Of a stretch of DNA of 11,042 bases, positions 1 through 6,436 are shown in pieces. The notes below the pieces were generated by a model. It saw nothing but the letters and a program-made list of their open reading frames with translations, was not told the origin of the DNA and did not search any database. A program made the translations under genes and the position numbers. The DNA lies in NCBI GenBank assembly GCA_964619725.1, contig CAZUFC010000201.1, forward strand, positions 1 through 11,042. Reading direction: 5' to 3'. Origin of the DNA: an uncultured bacterium. GTDB taxonomy: Bacteria > CSSED10-310 > CAZUFC01. Position 1 is the first letter of the stretch. Every line of letters begins with the position of its first letter.

Positions 1-185
1 TTGGAATACTTGGAAAAATTTTTCTCCAAAATCCTGCACAGCGGAAAAAGCTCCGTCCTGGTATTTGTTGCGAAGAGCGAAATATAATGTTATTGTTCTG
101 CGAGGTTAAAAAAGGCACGGACCTTTAGATTTATTACTGAAGCATTGGAAAAGCGAGGTTCGAGACAATAAAGGCGATCAAAAAA

Positions 186-1658
186 ATGAAGGAAGGGGAC
201 ATGAGACCGGTCATAAAATTTCTGGATGAAAAACTAATCGGCGAGATCATAGGCGAGGCTGTTTCGATTCTTTCGGAACTGGGGATCGAGGTTAACAACA
301 GCAGGGTAACGGAGCTGCTGACTTCTCATGGAGCAAAAGCTGACAAGGCGAAGAACCGTGTATATTTGAACGAAGCCATGATAGAGAAGGCATTGGAGAC
401 GGCGCCGTCTGAGATAAGTTTGTATGATGTTTTAGGCGAGAAGACTCATGATTTATCGGGAGACAATGTTTATTTCACCCCGGGTTCGGCGGCGATAAAC
501 ATACTGGACTATGAGACGGGGAGCATGCGGAAGCCGACGACGAGCGACTACATTCAATATGCGATGGTTATAAGCGGATTGAAGAACATAGCATCGCAGA
601 GCACGGCATTCATTCCGGGCGATGTGCATGAGAAGATTTCCGCGGGTTACCGGTTGTATTTGAGTCTGTTGTACTGTGAGAAGCCAGTAGTAACGGGGGC
701 TTTCACGATAGAAGGCTTTGAAGTGATGAAGGACTTTCAGTTGGCGGTTCGGGGAGACCGGGAGGAACTGAAAGCGAAGCCGCTGACGATATTTTCCTGT
801 TGTCCGACCTCTCCGTTGAAGTGGAGCGACGTGACGTCTCAGAACCTGTTGGATTGCGCCGAATATCATATACCTGTGGAATTTATCGCCATGCCGTTAT
901 CAGGCTTCATGGCGCCTGTAACGTTGACGGGCACGTTGGTGCAACATACCGCAGAAACGTTGAGCGGCGTGGTGATCAGTCAGCTTGCTGCTCCCGGTGC
1001 ACCAGTGTTGTATGGAGGTTCGCCGGCGATATTCGACGTTCGTTACGAGACGACGCCGATGGGCGCGGTAGAAACGGAGATGATCGATTGCGCTTACAAT
1101 GAGATAGGCAAGCATCTCGGTTTACCGACTCAGGCTTATATAGCGCTGAGCGATTCGAAGCTGCTTGATGCTCAAGCCGGTCTGGAAACCTCGATGGGCG
1201 CTACGCTGGCTGCACTGGCAGGCATCAACAACATTTCAGGTCCGGGCATGCTGGATTTTGAAAGTTGCCAGAGCCTGGAAAAGCTTGTGCTGGACAATGA
1301 AATTTGCGGGATGGCTTTGAGGTTGATCAGAGGAATCGAGCCGCGTGAGGATTTTCCGGCATTGCCTATTTTCAGGGAATTATTGCAGGAGGGCCATCTG
1401 CTTATCGCTGATCATACTCGTAAATACATGAAAGACCAGCATTATTTCACGGGACCGGCAATAGACCGCGCCAACCGGTCACGCCGTCAGGAAGAAGGAA
1501 GCAGGACGTTGCTCGAAAGAGCGCATGCGCAGGTGGAGAGCCTGGTTAAGAAGTATGAGCCGTCGCGCTTATCGGACGACACCAAGAAAGAATTGACGAA
1601 GCTTATAGCAAAAGAGGCGAAACGTTACGGGATGGACAAGCTGCCGTTATCCGAATAA
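186..1658 (+). CDS. Trimethylamine methyltransferase (MttB) superfamily protein, non-pyrrolysine type (methylamine/quaternary amine:corrinoid methyltransferase, MT1). The true start is probably the ATG at 201
   Basis: 490-aa ORF with MttB-family segments SPLKW, MPLSGFMAPVTLTGTLVQHTAETLSG, PGAPVLYG, DVRYETTPMGAVE and SDSKLLDAQAGLE...LAALAGINNISGPGML...SLEKLVLDNEI. No in-frame TAG. The purine-rich RBS GGAAGGGG (191-198) precedes ATG 201. A corrinoid protein gene follows. Confidence 0.93.
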   Translation: MKEGDMRPVIKFLDEKLIGEIIGEAVSILSELGIEVNNSRVTELLTSHGAKADKAKNRVYLNEAMIEKALETAPSEISLYDVLGEKTHDLSGDNVYFTPGSAAINILDYETGSMRKPTTSDYIQYAMVISGLKNIASQSTAFIPGDVHEKISAGYRLYLSLLYCEKPVVTGAFTIEGFEVMKDFQLAVRGDREELKAKPLTIFSCCPTSPLKWSDVTSQNLLDCAEYHIPVEFIAMPLSGFMAPVTLTGTLVQHTAETLSGVVISQLAAPGAPVLYGGSPAIFDVRYETTPMGAVETEMIDCAYNEIGKHLGLPTQAYIALSDSKLLDAQAGLETSMGATLAALAGINNISGPGMLDFESCQSLEKLVLDNEICGMALRLIRGIEPREDFPALPIFRELLQEGHLLIADHTRKYMKDQHYFTGPAIDRANRSRRQEEGSRTLLERAHAQVESLVKKYEPSRLSDDTKKELTKLIAKEAKRYGMDKLPLSE

Positions 1659-1698
1659 GACGGAAGTTTCATTATTGATATTCTATTTATAGCAAAGG

Positions 1699-2346
1699 AT
1701 GAGTGAAATGGAGTTGATGAAGCAATTATCGGAATTTTTGCAGAAGGGCGACGACAAGAAAGTCGCGGAGCTGACCAGGAAGGCGCTTGATGAAAACGTA
1801 TCGCCGCGCCTTATCCTTGATGAGGGTCTGATTGAGGGCATGAATGCGGTAGGCGAACAGTTCCGGGTTCACGAGATATTTCTTCCGGACGTGCTTTTAG
1901 CGGCCAGGGCGATGAATGCGGGTATGGATATACTGAAACCTTTCCTGATAGGCGAGAAAATAGAGTCTCGCGGCAAGATAGTCATTGGAACGGTACAAGG
2001 CGATCTTCATGATATCGGCAAGAACCTGGTTTCCATTATGCTCAAGGGAGCGGGATTCGAGGTGGTTGATCTCGGCAAAGACGTTTCTCCGGAAAAATTT
2101 GTGGAAACGGCCAGGAGCGAATCAGCGGATGTGATTGGACTTTCGGCGCTGCTGACGACGACCATGCCTGTAATGAAGGAGGTAGTGGACCTTTTGCGTG
2201 AAGAGGAACCTTCAGGTAAAATAAAAGTAATCATCGGAGGGGCTCCGGTGACGCAGGAATTCGCGGAAGAAATAGGAGCGGATTCTTTTGCATTCGACGG
2301 GGCGGCCGCTGTTGAGAGAGTGAAGAATTTATTCAAGAAGGCGTAA
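1699..2346 (+). CDS. Methyltransferase cognate corrinoid (B12-binding) protein, MttC/MtgC-like
   Basis: N-terminal four-helix cap region (GLIEGMNAVGEQF...IFLPDVLLAARAM), base-off His-on motif GDLHDIGKNLV (His codon 2008-2010), SALLTTTM and IIGGAPV. The start could alternatively be ATG 1708 or 1717. Confidence 0.96.
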   Translation: MSEMELMKQLSEFLQKGDDKKVAELTRKALDENVSPRLILDEGLIEGMNAVGEQFRVHEIFLPDVLLAARAMNAGMDILKPFLIGEKIESRGKIVIGTVQGDLHDIGKNLVSIMLKGAGFEVVDLGKDVSPEKFVETARSESADVIGLSALLTTTMPVMKEVVDLLREEEPSGKIKVIIGGAPVTQEFAEEIGADSFAFDGAAAVERVKNLFKKA

Positions 2347-2347
2347 A

Positions 2348-3232
2348 ATGAAAAATGTAATTGAGAGATTGCGAGCGGGTGAAATACTTGTGGCTGACGG
2401 AGCGATGGGCACTATGCTGATGAACCGCGGTTTAAAAAGGGGGCAATGTCCGGAGTCTTTCAATCTGAAAAAGAGCTCTATTTTAGAGGAAATTGCCGAA
2501 GCATATTTTAAGGCTGGAGCGCATATAGTTCAAACGAACACTTTCGGCGCTTCGCCTTTGAAGCTCGCCTCCTACGAACTTGAAGATGACACTGAGGCCA
2601 TCAACGTCAATGCAGTCAAAGCCGTCCGAAAAATAGTCGGCGACCGGGCATACGTTTCCGGCTCAGTCGGACCTACCGGAAGGATGCTGATTCCATTCGG
2701 CGATGTGGCGCCGGAAACGATGTACGGAAATTTTAAAAGGCAAATAAAGGCATTAATAGAATCCGGAGTGGACATAATATGCGTAGAGACAATGACTGAT
2801 CTCCAGGAGGCTGCGCTTGCGATAAAAGCGTCAAAGTCAATCGATTCAGACATACCGGTAATAGGTTCGATTACTTTTGATAAAACCTCCAGAGGTTTCT
2901 TTACGGTTATGGGAGTCGATATTGAAACTGCTGTAGACGAACTTGAATCCGCCAAGGCGGATATTATCGGATCAAATTGCGGTAACGGCATCGATAAAAT
3001 GGTCGAGATATCCCGTGAATACAGACGGTTCACGGAATTTCCTTTATCCATACAAGCCAACGCCGGCATACCCGTTATGAAAAACGGAATGCTTTCTTAT
3101 CCGGAAACTCCGGAATTCATGACCAAAAGGATACCGGATTTGATCGAAGCGGGAGTCGGCATAATCGGAGGTTGTTGCGGCACGACGCCCGAACATATCA
3201 AATCTTTTCGAAAGTTGATCGATTCGCTCTAA
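2348..3232 (+). CDS. Homocysteine S-methyltransferase family protein (stand-alone Hcy-binding domain of MetH type)
   Basis: DGAMGTML, TNTFGAS, GSVGPTG, ETMTDLQE and ANAG motifs, plus the three Zn-ligand cysteines GSNCG (C211) and GGCCG (C276, C277). The ORF ends after the barrel, with no pterin, B12 or reactivation domain. It starts 1 nt after the corrinoid gene stop (TAAaATG). Confidence 0.94.
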   Translation: MKNVIERLRAGEILVADGAMGTMLMNRGLKRGQCPESFNLKKSSILEEIAEAYFKAGAHIVQTNTFGASPLKLASYELEDDTEAINVNAVKAVRKIVGDRAYVSGSVGPTGRMLIPFGDVAPETMYGNFKRQIKALIESGVDIICVETMTDLQEAALAIKASKSIDSDIPVIGSITFDKTSRGFFTVMGVDIETAVDELESAKADIIGSNCGNGIDKMVEISREYRRFTEFPLSIQANAGIPVMKNGMLSYPETPEFMTKRIPDLIEAGVGIIGGCCGTTPEHIKSFRKLIDSL

Positions 3233-3411
3233 AAACAGGCTGCGCATGTTGAAAAAAAAGAAAAAAGCGGCGCATCCGGGACAGGCGTTAAAAGAAAAAT
3301 TTGAACTCTCAGATCAGATTTCACAGAAAAAAGTCGGCCGATGACGACTGAATAATAATTGACATCATGACGCTAATTACACTACTAAAAAAATGAGGAG
3401 TCCCGGACATT

Positions 3412-3543
3412 ATGACTCCTTTGTTGAACAGTAACGTTCCACTGAGGAAAATTCAGGTTCGTTTTCTGGGCCGCAACCGAAGGCCATCAAACGCGAATTC
3501 CGCTGTTGCAATAATCTTCGAACTTTTGAACATGATGAAATGA
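3412..3543 (+). CDS. Possible 43-aa small ORF upstream of mnmA (MTPLLNSNVPLRKIQVRFLGRNRRPSNANSAVAIIFELLNMMK)
   Basis: GAGGAG at 3395-3400 lies 11 nt before ATG 3412 and the frame is open to TGA 3541-3543. It is below the ORF-track cutoff and no homology was recognised. Confidence 0.2.
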   Translation: MTPLLNSNVPLRKIQVRFLGRNRRPSNANSAVAIIFELLNMMK

Positions 3544-3550
3544 CAGACTG

Positions 3551-4747
3551 ATGGAAATCAACACTCGTAAATATCGCGAATGCCTGGACGACATTGATAT
3601 GGGTTTGCATATGACCCTCATTCCCTGCAGGCGCCGCATTGCCGTAGCAATGAGCGGTGGAGTCGATTCAAGCATTGCCGCTGCGGTACTTCGGAATGCC
3701 GGTTGTGATGTTATAGGCATAACCCTGCTCTTTTCTGATGAGAAAAACAGCGCGGGCTCGCCCTTGTGCCTGGATTGCGGAACTGCGGTGAATCCCGAGG
3801 CTGACGTCGAACATGCCAAAGAAATTGCTGAAATCCTCAGTTTCAAGCATTATGTACTGGATTGTTCAAAGCAGTTCGAGGAACTCATATTGTTGCCTGC
3901 CTGGTACGAGTATTCCAGGGGAAGAACGCCCAATCCATGTATAGTATGCAACAAATTAATCAAATTCGGTCTTTTCATGGAATATGCTCAAAATTTAGGA
4001 GCTGAACTGATAGCCACGGGACATCATGCCAGAATTCAATGGGTTTACAGGGAAAATGAAAGACAGGAATGGAAATTGCTCCGCGGAAAGGACCAGCAAA
4101 AGGATCAGTCCTATTTTTTATCTTTCCTGGATGTCGGTCAGTTGAGCCGCTCAATATTTCCCATCGGTAACCTGACGAAGGAGCAGGTCCGGGATATGGC
4201 TGAGAGTCTCAAGCTGCCCAATTCGCGAAAGCCTGAAAGTCAGGATGTCTGTCTTTTTAAAGGAAAAAAGCAGTTTTCCGAAATACTTCGTCAGAAATTC
4301 AACGCGAAGCCCAGGAAAGGACTGATAACAGATACTGACGGAAAAATATTAGGCTCCCATACGGGCATCCATCAATTCACCATAGGACAAAGAAAAGGAC
4401 TGGGCATTTCTCTGGGTTCGCCGGCTTACGTGCTCCGGATAGACCCGGAATCCAACAACATCATAGTGGGAACCGATAAAAAAGAACTCTATTCTGAAGG
4501 GCTTCTGGCATCCGGAATTCATATGATTTCCCCATCACCTCTGCCTTCCAGTTTCGAAGCAGACATTAAAATTCGGTATTTACATAAACCGGTCAAATCA
4601 GAAGTTAATTTGTTCGGCGACCATAAGGCGGTGGTCAAATTTTCCGAACCTCAAAAAGCCGTTACGCCGGGCCAGGTGGTCGCTTTTTACGACAACGACA
4701 GCGTTCTCGGAGCAGGATGGATCGATGCCCCGCTCCGAGATGTCTGA
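3551..4747 (+). CDS. mnmA: tRNA-specific 2-thiouridylase MnmA. The true start is probably downstream (ATG 3599 or 3611)
   Basis: PP-loop AMSGGVDSS, GRTPNPCIVCN, IATGHHA, KDQSYFL, ESQDVC, FTIGQRKGLG, KIRY and AVTPGQ...VLGAG all appear in the canonical MnmA order. Confidence 0.97.
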   Translation: MEINTRKYRECLDDIDMGLHMTLIPCRRRIAVAMSGGVDSSIAAAVLRNAGCDVIGITLLFSDEKNSAGSPLCLDCGTAVNPEADVEHAKEIAEILSFKHYVLDCSKQFEELILLPAWYEYSRGRTPNPCIVCNKLIKFGLFMEYAQNLGAELIATGHHARIQWVYRENERQEWKLLRGKDQQKDQSYFLSFLDVGQLSRSIFPIGNLTKEQVRDMAESLKLPNSRKPESQDVCLFKGKKQFSEILRQKFNAKPRKGLITDTDGKILGSHTGIHQFTIGQRKGLGISLGSPAYVLRIDPESNNIIVGTDKKELYSEGLLASGIHMISPSPLPSSFEADIKIRYLHKPVKSEVNLFGDHKAVVKFSEPQKAVTPGQVVAFYDNDSVLGAGWIDAPLRDV

Positions 4748-4921: not shown

Positions 4922-6436
4922 ATGAAAAAAGACGGAATAACGACGCTGTTCAAAGGCCGTTCGGATCAACAGAATATCACCCTGATCCGACACCCTCAAT
5001 ACGGTCTTATGCTCATCCTCGACGTCGGCGTTCAATTCATGGAATATGAAGAACACATTTATCACGAATGCCTCGGCGTCATTCCAATGCTTTTCTGCAA
5101 TCCGAGAAGCATATTTATCGGCGGAGGAGGAGACGGTTTATTGACGGCGCGGCTTACACGCTTCTCCTTTGTGCAGGAAATTATCGTCTGCGATTATGAT
5201 AAAATACTCACTCAAGCCGCGAAAGATATTCCTCAGTTCGCAGAATTAAATCGTTACAGCTTATCGGATAAAAAAGTCAAAGTCGTCAACCAGGATGCAG
5301 CGGAATACCTGAAACATAACGAAAAAAAATACGATCTGATCGTTTGTGATTTTCCCGATCCTTTTACAGAAGAACTCGGACGTTTATACAGCGTCGATTT
5401 TTACCGGCTCGTTCAAAAGCGACTGAATTACAAGGGCATGATGTGCCGTCAGCTAAGGAAAGAAAAACGCATTACCGCGGTTAATCTTAATACGATCGCC
5501 GAAGTTTTCCCCAATATGCTTTATTTTAAATTGGACCTGAGTCCTCATTACGGTTTTGTCCTGGCTTCCGATTCTGAGATAGAAAGGTTTCGTTCGCTTC
5601 CCGATTGGACAGTTTTTCTGAATAAGGAAAAGATCAAATCACTGATTCGAAATCCCGAAGACTACCGAAGAGCGCACAAGGGCATCAATACCCTGGAAAA
5701 CAACATACTTTACCGCATAGCGATAACGGATGCCTATCTTGATGAAGCCTCTTCCGTCTTCCCTTTAGCCCCCGAATTCAGGAATGTTTTCATTGATGCC
5801 CGGAATCCCTGTTATCCTTATCTTCTTTCCGATTTCATACGTTCCTGCGGGGAAGAACATTCATTGATATTGCATGTAAAAAGCGCTGAACGCATTCGCT
5901 ATCGAGATGTTCTAAAGAAATCGGGGTATAGAAAGAAACAGGAATACAGACGGTTGAATTTTTGTTTCTCTGTCGCCGGAACAGCGATGCTCCAGAAACG
6001 GGCATCATCCGCAGACCATGCGGAACAGCTCTGTGCGGACTATAATACAGGCCGACCGGATTCACATCCTGATGCCGAAATTTTGATCGCGGATTATCTC
6101 AATAATTCAGTCAGGCCTCTGCTTCCTGCCGGAACAGAGCTTAATTTTCCCGATTGTGATTTCCATCAGATCATCATAATAGGAGAGGAAGAAGGCATTG
6201 TTCTGCTGCTTCTGATAATGACTCAACCCACTCTGACCGTCACTCTGGTGCATGCGTCATCGGCATCAGAGGCGCTGGAAGCTGCGTGGGCTAAATCGCT
6301 TCTGCTGCTTGAGAAGAAATTTAATGCGTTGGGAAAATGGTTGCAGATCGAGTCCTTTAATGATGAAACGACGAATGTTTTATCGAAGTTAGGAGCAGAA
6401 GATGCCGGACTATATTACATTTTTACGCAGGATTAA
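4922..6436 (+). CDS. Spermidine synthase (aminopropyltransferase)-like protein with an uncharacterised C-terminal extension
   Basis: Residues 1 to ~267 carry S-x-Q-Q-x-I, LILDVGVQF, YHECL, GGGGDG (aa 67-72), NQDA, YDLIVCDFPDP (D143), LYSVDFY and a terminal INTLENNILY, as in SpeE-like proteins. Residues ~268-504 are not recognised. No clear RBS. Confidence 0.82.
   Translation: MKKDGITTLFKGRSDQQNITLIRHPQYGLMLILDVGVQFMEYEEHIYHECLGVIPMLFCNPRSIFIGGGGDGLLTARLTRFSFVQEIIVCDYDKILTQAAKDIPQFAELNRYSLSDKKVKVVNQDAAEYLKHNEKKYDLIVCDFPDPFTEELGRLYSVDFYRLVQKRLNYKGMMCRQLRKEKRITAVNLNTIAEVFPNMLYFKLDLSPHYGFVLASDSEIERFRSLPDWTVFLNKEKIKSLIRNPEDYRRAHKGINTLENNILYRIAITDAYLDEASSVFPLAPEFRNVFIDARNPCYPYLLSDFIRSCGEEHSLILHVKSAERIRYRDVLKKSGYRKKQEYRRLNFCFSVAGTAMLQKRASSADHAEQLCADYNTGRPDSHPDAEILIADYLNNSVRPLLPAGTELNFPDCDFHQIIIIGEEEGIVLLLLIMTQPTLTVTLVHASSASEALEAAWAKSLLLLEKKFNALGKWLQIESFNDETTNVLSKLGAEDAGLYYIFTQD

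Follow-up and report, generated by a model that had tools for sequence, protein, structure and literature searches.

Three adjacent genes on an 11,042-bp contig of an uncultured bacterium probably encode a cobalamin-dependent methionine synthase in separate parts, in which an MttB-family protein would be the loading module in place of the pterin (methyl-tetrahydrofolate) module of MetH. The contig (C201), referred to as a whole as the window, belongs to a metagenome-assembled genome (MAG) of 9.17 Mb in 344 contigs, 90.9% complete and with 6.5% contamination, here called the host genome. The genes code for an MttB homologue (P0001), a corrinoid protein (P0002) and a stand-alone homocysteine methyltransferase (P0003), and the trio is a real, strongly conserved and ordinary three-gene member of a kind of cassette that is already in print. 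The layout is as follows, with the co-orientation and the 40-nt and 1-nt gaps just as in the original prediction made from this DNA.

186..1658, + strand: P0001, non-pyrrolysine MttB-superfamily methyl-donor:corrinoid methyltransferase (MT1), 490 aa, Pfam MTTB
1659..1698, no strand: spacer between the MttB and corrinoid genes, 40 nt
1699..2346, + strand: P0002, corrinoid protein with B12 cap and Rossmann B12-binding domain, 215 aa, PF02607 and PF02310
2347, no strand: gap between the corrinoid and homocysteine methyltransferase genes, 1 nt
2348..3232, + strand: P0003, stand-alone homocysteine S-methyltransferase (MT2), 294 aa, PF02574

Domains and motifs of the three proteins

Pfam searches confirm all three of the anticipated families. 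P0001 matches MTTB (PF06253) with 251.6 bits (cut-off 25) and TIGR02369 with 365 bits, under that model's cut-off of 525, and its matches in the PDB include MtgB (9yce/2qne, 200 bits, E 5e-58) and MttB (7xcl, 190 bits), so that by sequence it appears about equally far from MtgB and from pyrrolysine MttB. Its start may alternatively lie at Met6 (nt 201). The mttB frame has no in-frame stop, and P0001 therefore encodes no pyrrolysine. The hallmark of pyrrolysine MttB is an in-frame UAG (Pyl334) together with Gly110 and Tyr364 (PMC9842639), and at these positions P0001 has Leu321, Ser101 and Ser351, respectively.

P0002 contains B12-binding_2 (PF02607, 80.4 bits) and B12-binding (PF02310, 105.7 bits) domains, and its gene has AAAGGA ahead of the ATG at 1699, as read from the sequence. 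Its top NCBIfam matches are MtgC_2 (224 bits) and pyl_corrinoid (206 bits), both below cut-off, and the B12 region of MetH scores 153 bits. P0003 matches S-methyl_trans (PF02574) with 231 bits, and its top NCBIfam match is the N-terminal half of the bifunctional homocysteine methyltransferase/methylenetetrahydrofolate reductase PRK08645 (278 bits), with MetH at 181 bits. The motifs that the original prediction reported as intact are DLHDIG (D102, H104, G107) in P0002 and the zinc-type triad Cys211/Cys276/Cys277 in P0003; P0002 also carries SALLTT, and DxHxxG/SxL together with Cys3 is the pairing that is known from MetH. D102, H104, G107, S149 and L151 are invariant in all 61 aligned corrinoid sequences, and the three cysteines in all 78 aligned homocysteine methyltransferases. 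Pterin_bind (PF00809) is absent from all eight window open reading frames (ORFs) tested with Pfam, in keeping with the earlier statement that the cluster carries no pterin-binding methyltransferase.

A complex prediction for P0003 and P0002, run with custom 25-row alignments, scores 0.60, the best control scoring 0.00, with at least 43% of contacts in agreement between runs and partner pLDDT of at least 79. When the test was calibrated, 116 of 157 solved complexes passed this mark, as did 2 of 215 mismatched pairs; scores at or below 0.60 were those of only 18 of the 157 solved complexes, plus both of the mismatches passing the mark. The prediction thus lends weak support to P0003 binding P0002, and the pass may reflect mere likeness to solved MetH structures.

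Conservation of the cassette

P0003 was used to scan one genome per GTDB species; the best 80 of 199 relatives were analysed, with partner genes placed by tblastn. In 54 of the 80 loci an MttB orthologue (61–76% identical to P0001 by tblastn), a corrinoid protein (57–68%) and a homocysteine methyltransferase (51–63%) are encoded co-oriented, which is an association beyond chance, and all three genes are present in 51 of the 65 loci with at least 3.3 kb of upstream sequence. The corrinoid–homocysteine methyltransferase order is kept in 71 of the 80. The trio is a conserved unit and not a chance neighbourhood, and none of the 54 cassettes has a pterin gene within it. The 54 cassette MAGs carry more than 15 phylum-level labels, among them Zixibacteria, Cloacimonadota, WOR-3, Aminicenantes/Acidobacteriota, Ignavibacteria, Aegiribacteria, Eisenbacteria, Planctomycetota, Bacteroidota, Fibrobacterota, Gemmatimonadota, Myxococcota, Actinomycetota and Clostridia.

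Among the remaining 26 loci, two have an activation-domain gene (ActD, see below) with the corrinoid and homocysteine methyltransferase genes, both being cut upstream, and nine have the corrinoid–homocysteine methyltransferase pair only (five cut upstream, three with pyrrolysine-type methyltransferases and one with a different MttB downstream). Two more have this pair with a distant ActD gene, both of the pyrrolysine type, three have ActD and the homocysteine methyltransferase, and ten have the homocysteine methyltransferase alone, three of these with less than 1 kb of upstream sequence. We note that three cassettes have, directly 3' of the homocysteine methyltransferase gene, an ORF (L050:6839-8290, L057:4626-6065 and L081:7821-9164) whose product of about 480 aa ends in a URO-D domain (MtaA/MtbA-like). 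This may be a second methylcobamide acceptor enzyme.

The unit was proposed as a three-part enzyme, and this description does not hold for its relatives, of which 53 of 54 carry a fourth gene, encoding an activation domain. The gene order is MttB–ActD–corrinoid–homocysteine methyltransferase in 50, and in three others, all Bacteroidota-labelled, ActD lies upstream of MttB; the three-gene form seen in the window is found in one of the 54 only (L090). ActD proteins are of about 240 aa and match the MetH activation domain (PF02965) with 36–44 bits in all three tested, and the motifs PGYCGW and FCxxCxxxxC are conserved among 46 sequences. RamA-type activases (PF14574) occur in just 4 of 50 cassette genomes, a rarity that fits repair by the cassette's own activation protein. 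Stand-alone ActD proteins (for example L018:5618-6361 and C70:7863-8651) share the conserved C-terminal CxxCxxxxC, to which the cassette type adds the Cys of PGYCGW, and this pattern could be a metal or Fe-S site. The activation domain of MetH is not known to have such a site.

The MttB clade and its methyl donor

P0001 is 61–72% identical to 51 full-length cassette orthologues and nests inside the cassette MttB clade (SH-aLRT 96) in a quick maximum-likelihood tree, from which the characterised MtgB, MtcB, MtpB, MtyB and MthB are absent. Phyla are intermixed within the clade, which suggests horizontal spread, and the best match to P0001 among 13 other genomes of the host's phylum is 58%.

The glycine betaine-binding residues of MtgB, defined by mutagenesis and a ligand-bound structure, are Y97, R312, H348 and F356 (PMC13080624). 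These align with S101, Q316, S351 and E359 of P0001, so that all four are replaced, and the replacements are near-invariant across the 52 clade sequences (S101 in 51, Q316 in 52, S351 in 49 and E359 in 52); with L321 they form the pocket signature S101/Q316/L321/S351/E359. As described for the MtgB structure, R312 is kept in all characterised non-pyrrolysine MttB members, whose substrates are all acidic quaternary amines (PMC13080624), and the same point has been made for phosphocholine (PMC12155760). The suggestion that the system is betaine-fed thus finds no support in the binding pocket: glycine betaine is probably not the donor, and the cassette clade probably uses a donor of another class. 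The invariant Glu359 at the site of the cation-pi Phe of MtgB suggests a cationic donor without an acid group, and the substrate of P0001 is probably a cationic N-methyl compound of this kind. The genes that recur beside related cassettes are unrelated to them (a sigma-54 regulator, Fe-S P-loop NTPases, a C25 peptidase and an IS200 transposase); with no conserved flanking clue, the assignment of a donor is wholly our inference.

Other MttB subfamilies and a pyrrolysine version

MttB relatives that are 40–53% identical to P0001 also adjoin homocysteine methyltransferase genes, in four of six loci, with or without ActD and corrinoid genes. Their gene orders differ (homocysteine methyltransferase–ActD–MttB and corrinoid–homocysteine methyltransferase–MttB), and their pocket signature is S101, Q/H316, L/C321, S351 and E359.

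A different set of MT1 genes is seen in five further loci (L023, L048, L021, L026 and L041), whose records are labelled Aminicenantes or 'uncultured bacterium'. Here the corrinoid–homocysteine methyltransferase pair comes after mttB and mtbB genes that have a single in-frame TAG each, at the position of pyrrolysine (L023:3307-13193), and Rfam PYLIS elements score 83 and 66 bits. L023 has a complete pylSn-pylD-pylC-pylB-pylSc operon and an ActD-like gene directly downstream on the opposite strand, and PylB is above cut-off in four of the five genomes. The TAG-containing mttB and mtbB beside a pyl operon indicate that the corrinoid–homocysteine methyltransferase pair has been combined with bona fide methylamine MT1 enzymes, and suggest methionine synthesis fed by tri- or dimethylamine in pyrrolysine-decoding bacteria. 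Rfam PYLIS_3 also passes its gathering score (38–46 against 38 bits) about 950 nt into the UAG-free mttB orthologues of L034, L035, L045, L046, L062 and L076; these matches seem to be conserved coding sequence and give no evidence of pyrrolysine.

Methionine synthases in the cassette genomes

Fifty of the 54 cassette genomes were searched for folate modules and other methionine synthases. The genomes in which absences are scored are MAGs of uncertain completeness except one that is closed, and they are related to one another, so that the counts are descriptive and do not amount to a statistical test. In 19 of the 50 the only PF00809 matches are dihydropteroate synthases, an identity confirmed in five of five of the frames of about 400 aa. 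A recheck with PF02574 and NF005719 removed three of the 19, of which G039 has a short MetH of 784 aa and G008 and G011 have stand-alone pterin methyltransferases. Neither a pterin methyltransferase (PF00809 and NF005719) nor a fused MetH was found in the other 16, a third of the cassette genomes sampled. The three pterin domains that the six-frame PF00809 search missed (G039:C179, G008:C212 and G011:C24) were recovered with NF005719 or NCBIfam. PF00809 alone as a test for lack of a pterin methyltransferase was rejected as too insensitive, and the number of genomes without an alternative synthase fell from 12 to 8.

Core-MetE-like genes occur in seven of the 16 pterin-free genomes, and in G007 a YitJ-like gene runs into a contig end. 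No MetH, MetE-family (Meth_synt_2) or pterin methyltransferase was found in eight of the 50 genomes (those of loci L018, L022, L034, L045, L055, L066, L067 and L081). Methylenetetrahydrofolate reductase (MTHFR) was not found in seven of these eight, compared with nine of the other 42. AdoHcyase is present in six of the eight and a strong MetY/MetB-type gene in five, and in seven of them the P0003-type gene is the only S-methyl_trans gene. L045 lies in the closed 2.37-Mb chromosome (G021), which encodes AdoHcyase and two Cys_Met_Meta_PP genes. In its comparative part, that is in the synteny, in the 16 genomes without a pterin methyltransferase and in the eight without any other recognisable synthase, the proposal that MttB replaces the folate module and passes methyl through the corrinoid to homocysteine finds support; its chemical part stays conditional, as set out below.

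We also note that in G001 (C91:7436-11149), G003 (C9), G013 (C3), G017 (C47) and G022 (C17) core-MetE-like genes, with products of about 330 aa, occur as tandem pairs. In G001 and G003 these pairs adjoin a homocysteine methyltransferase/MTHFR fusion of about 610–630 aa.

A proposed mechanism and its alternatives

The donor, the direction in which methyl moves and the chemistry at each step are what we infer from these comparisons. In a plausible scenario P0001 would bind a small methylated compound and methylate the Co(I) corrinoid on P0002, and methyl-Co(III)-P0002 would then dock onto P0003, where a zinc-activated homocysteine thiolate would accept the methyl group to give methionine and Co(I). 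Occasional Co(II) would be repaired by a MetH-type activation-domain protein, which would draw on S-adenosylmethionine (SAM) and an electron donor of low potential. The repair protein of related cassettes would be the one encoded inside the cluster; for the window trio it might be encoded past the contig start or be a distant homologue on contig C70.

Several observations weigh against this scenario, and the first group concerns the host. Its contig C97 encodes a short MetH of 823 aa (homocysteine, pterin, cap and B12 domains) without an activation domain, and there are two MTHFR genes. A separate cluster was found on a further contig:

C15:6845-14528, - strand (L009): MarR; MttB, 499 aa; pterin methyltransferase, 270 aa; OpuA-type ABC transporter (ATPase, permease and OpuAC binding protein); MttB, 511 aa; corrinoid protein, 227 aa

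This cluster looks like a conventional quaternary amine:tetrahydrofolate (THF) system, and its stand-alone pterin methyltransferase could load P0002 from methyl-THF. At the position of MtgB R312 the two MttB proteins of the cluster have Tyr in place of Arg. The search of the source genome that had been proposed thus turned up both a metH and a stand-alone pterin methyltransferase; metE was not found. Folate independence is accordingly not a property that can be claimed for this organism. Since it has MetH and MTHFR, it would not need the cassette, and we take the trio to be an auxiliary route there, one that leads directly from donor to methionine.

The second group concerns repair of the corrinoid and the surroundings of the cassette. 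No ActD gene is present in the window, including the 40-nt gap between the MttB and corrinoid genes; the alternative place upstream of MttB, used in 3 of the 54 cassettes, would fall beyond the contig start. The sole ActD-like ORF that tblastn finds in the host assembly, at C70:7863-8651, is 30% identical to cassette ActD, and its 24.5 bits fall just short of the cut-off of 25. No RamA-type activase (PF14574) turned up in the host genome, which is incomplete as noted above and in which DUF1638 was not searched, so that reactivation of the MtgBCDE type has no counterpart identified there. No SAM, cobalamin or THF riboswitch reaches the Rfam gathering score in the window or in 19 cassette loci, and no transporter or substrate-preparing gene recurs in the flanks of related loci.

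The third group concerns the other genomes and the literature. A pterin methyltransferase or MetH is present in 34 of the 50 cassette genomes and a MetE-family gene in nine, so that the cassette is not the only route in most of them. In 3 of 19 genomes divergent pterin domains had escaped PF00809, so further misses are possible, and absences from MAGs are uncertain. The closed chromosome G021 has a second, divergent S-methyl_trans ORF (109 bits). Our literature search found no biochemical, genetic, expression or reconstitution work on the pterin-free cassette.

In one alternative P0002 is a shared hub, as in the MtgBCDE system of Ruegeria: methionine would be made from methyl-THF through a pterin methyltransferase encoded elsewhere, MttB would serve mainly in catabolism (donor to corrinoid to THF), and the system would not be folate-independent in practice. 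The C15 cluster has the parts for this, as it combines a 270-aa pterin methyltransferase with two more MttB genes, an OpuA-type betaine transporter and a corrinoid protein that is the second of the genome; the 34 cassette genomes with some pterin methyltransferase or MetH also fit, and in Ruegeria both MtgC and the pterin subunit MtgD are required for methionine synthesis and for betaine use (PMC12478193). However, no cassette of the 54 includes a pterin gene, and two models find no pterin methyltransferase in the 16 genomes described above, one of them a closed chromosome. The C15 cluster moreover has a corrinoid protein of its own, and a MetH-type activation gene within the cassette fits a biosynthetic rather than a catabolic system. 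We regard the shared hub as unlikely.

The remaining alternatives concern P0003. It could methylate some thiol or selenol in place of homocysteine, or the main role of the trio could be to dispose of or demethylate an abundant methylated compound; PF02574 does include enzymes with other donors and acceptors, and P0003 falls under the curated cut-off of every NCBIfam equivalog that it matches. Its best matches are nevertheless the homocysteine domains of PRK08645 and MetH, the cysteine triad is invariant, and the pairing with a MetH-type activation domain recurs in all but one of the 54 cassettes. Where MetH and MetE are lacking it is, with one exception among eight, the only gene of its family, and six of these eight genomes make homocysteine, as they encode AdoHcyase. 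We consider a different acceptor distinctly improbable. A direct, corrinoid-independent enzyme using betaine, S-methylmethionine or SAM, of the betaine-homocysteine methyltransferase (BHMT) or MmuM type and merely beside an unrelated MttB–corrinoid pair, would match P0003 in being a stand-alone PF02574 protein of about 300 aa, and the BHMT-type model PRK07534 scores 201.8 bits. That score is far under the cut-off of 338, as is that of the MmuM-type model PRK09485 (93.3 against 215), while the 1-nt spacing to the corrinoid gene, and an order retained in 71 of 80 loci, speak for two proteins that work as a pair; moreover, the S. meliloti-type 'Bhmt' has itself been argued to be the corrinoid-dependent module MtgE (PMC12478193). 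The probability that we give to such an enzyme is very small.

A separate-part, MttB-loaded methionine synthase therefore remains the reading that we prefer. Only tentatively, and as something we hold to be doubtful, do we extend it to the proposal that enzymes of the cassette MttB clade, without needing pyrrolysine, take methyl from a cationic, non-acidic donor (choline, for example, or tri- or dimethylamine in protonated form) and that the cassette is the sole methionine synthase in lineages without MetH, MetE-family, MTHFR and pterin methyltransferase genes.

Relationship to known systems

The same cluster was reported by Williams et al. (2022, Environ Microbiol, PMC9324843) in Ca. Electryoneota MAGs and 'diverse bacteria', and their account of it puts forward, by genomic inference, a new way of making methionine that depends on a corrinoid and for which they name no methyl donor. 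The original prediction was presented without knowledge of this report, in which both the exact cassette and the hypothesis had appeared. The window agrees with the published cluster in its three families and in their order (MttB, then corrinoid, then homocysteine methyltransferase), and a conventional MetH is likewise present in those MAGs as in the host; it differs in having no activation-domain gene between MttB and the corrinoid gene (PMC9324843).

The earlier caveat that similar neighbourhoods occur in Alphaproteobacteria is borne out by MtgBCDE. Genetics in Ruegeria pomeroyi showed that MtgC and MtgD are each needed for betaine demethylation and for methionine synthesis, and in the model of Mausz et al. 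(2025, PNAS, PMC12478193) MtgC serves MtgB, MtgD and the homocysteine module MtgE, with the S. meliloti 'Bhmt' reinterpreted as MtgE. The cassette resembles this system, the split MetH of Phaeobacter inhibens and the S. meliloti 'bhmt' locus in that a stand-alone corrinoid protein serves an MttB-family enzyme and a stand-alone homocysteine module, by which the making of methionine is tied to an MT1 of the methylamine type (PMC12478193). In MtgBCDE, as that report describes it, MtgD is essential, the donor is glycine betaine, reactivation is by RamA and DUF1638, MtgE is mostly unlinked, and the hosts are aerobic Proteobacteria of which 70% lack MetH (PMC12478193). The cassette differs in having no pterin gene, with none found in 16 of 50 genomes, in the replaced betaine residues, in the MetH-like repair module and in the scarcity of RamA (4/50).

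MetH itself shares with the cassette the homocysteine module (Zn, Cys3) and the cap and B12 module with DxHxxG/SxL, as well as a SAM-type activation module in the relatives of the window trio. Unlike MetH, the cassette has separate proteins, its pterin barrel is replaced by an MttB-family barrel, and P0002 is closer to the corrinoid proteins of methylamine and betaine systems than to the MetH B12 domain (224 and 206 against 153 bits in NCBIfam). Price and colleagues are also said to have worked on split MetH and folate-independent methionine synthases. In our full-text search no paper matched the combination of 'folate-independent', 'methionine synthase' and 'MttB'.

A non-pyrrolysine MttB-type MT1 with a cognate corrinoid protein is shared with MtgB/MtgC/MtgA of Desulfitobacterium hafniense and with the MtpB, MtcB, MtyB and MthB systems of Eubacterium limosum. 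In those systems, as reported, the acceptor is THF through a pterin MT2, activation is by RamA/RamQ, and acidic quaternary amines are bound by R312 (PMC13080624, PMC12155760), whereas in the cassette the acceptor module is a homocysteine methyltransferase and R312 is replaced by an invariant Gln. Pyrrolysine MttB/MttC of Methanosarcina has the same fold and a corrinoid partner, but P0001 has no UAG and the Methanosarcina acceptor is coenzyme M through MtbA.

Beyond the print record that we found, the additions are the counts of cassette genomes without an alternative synthase or pterin enzyme, the invariant non-betaine pocket signature, and the wider MttB subfamilies, including the pyrrolysine ones, that are linked to the corrinoid–homocysteine methyltransferase pair.

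Flanking sequences and other features of the window

The trio is bounded by the following features.

1..185, no strand: 5' flank, of which 1-87 is the tail of an unrelated ORF in frame 1; the contig starts at position 1
3233..3550, no strand: 3' spacer closing the cluster, 318 nt
3551..4747: mnmA, the unrelated next gene, assigned from the ORF and domain searches

The contig begins only 185 nt before the first gene, and the gene content upstream of P0001 is therefore not visible in the window. Positions 1-53 are common to far deeper contigs, X1 (depth 236), X3 (48) and X4 (45), all of which diverge after position 53. Contigs of the window organism have a depth of about 9–10, and those sharing 1-53 are up to about 20-fold deeper, so that the assembly appears to have broken at a repeat or shared element at the window start.

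By Pfam and NCBIfam the genes past the trio are unrelated to it (mnmA, and speE-like, arylsulfotransferase-like, FMN reductase and FG-GAP protein genes). The spermidine-synthase domain of the 504-aa protein encoded at 4922-6436 (+ strand) is confined to the first 270 residues or so, and the C-terminal half is without a Pfam match. No Rfam family reaches its gathering score in the window, and across the 19 cassette loci the Rfam matches are PYLIS elements and one tRNA only. A promoter and terminator scan of 1-3700 gave counts at the level of shuffled sequence and placed no site within the trio or past it; the + strand of 3233..3550 likewise shows nothing like a terminator, so that no 3' end of the transcript is defined. 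The stretch is present in four DNA runs of one study, and no RNA runs are listed with it.

Implications

The window itself adds little, having the three-gene form in a genome that also encodes MetH, for an idea in print since 2022; the wider meaning lies with the family. If the proposed function is correct, the cassette would be a fifth way to methionine beside MetH, MetE, the core-MetE families and BHMT, in which methyl passes straight from an environmental methylated compound through B12 without folate, and a function would be found for a branch of the MttB superfamily that is among the largest still uncharacterised. WOR-3, Zixibacteria, Cloacimonadota and Eisenbacteria appear to be without a methionine synthase and MTHFR, and the cassette would explain their methionine supply. 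On the more doubtful extension given above, lineages without alternatives would depend on B12 and on a methyl donor from the environment for their entire methionine/SAM cycle.

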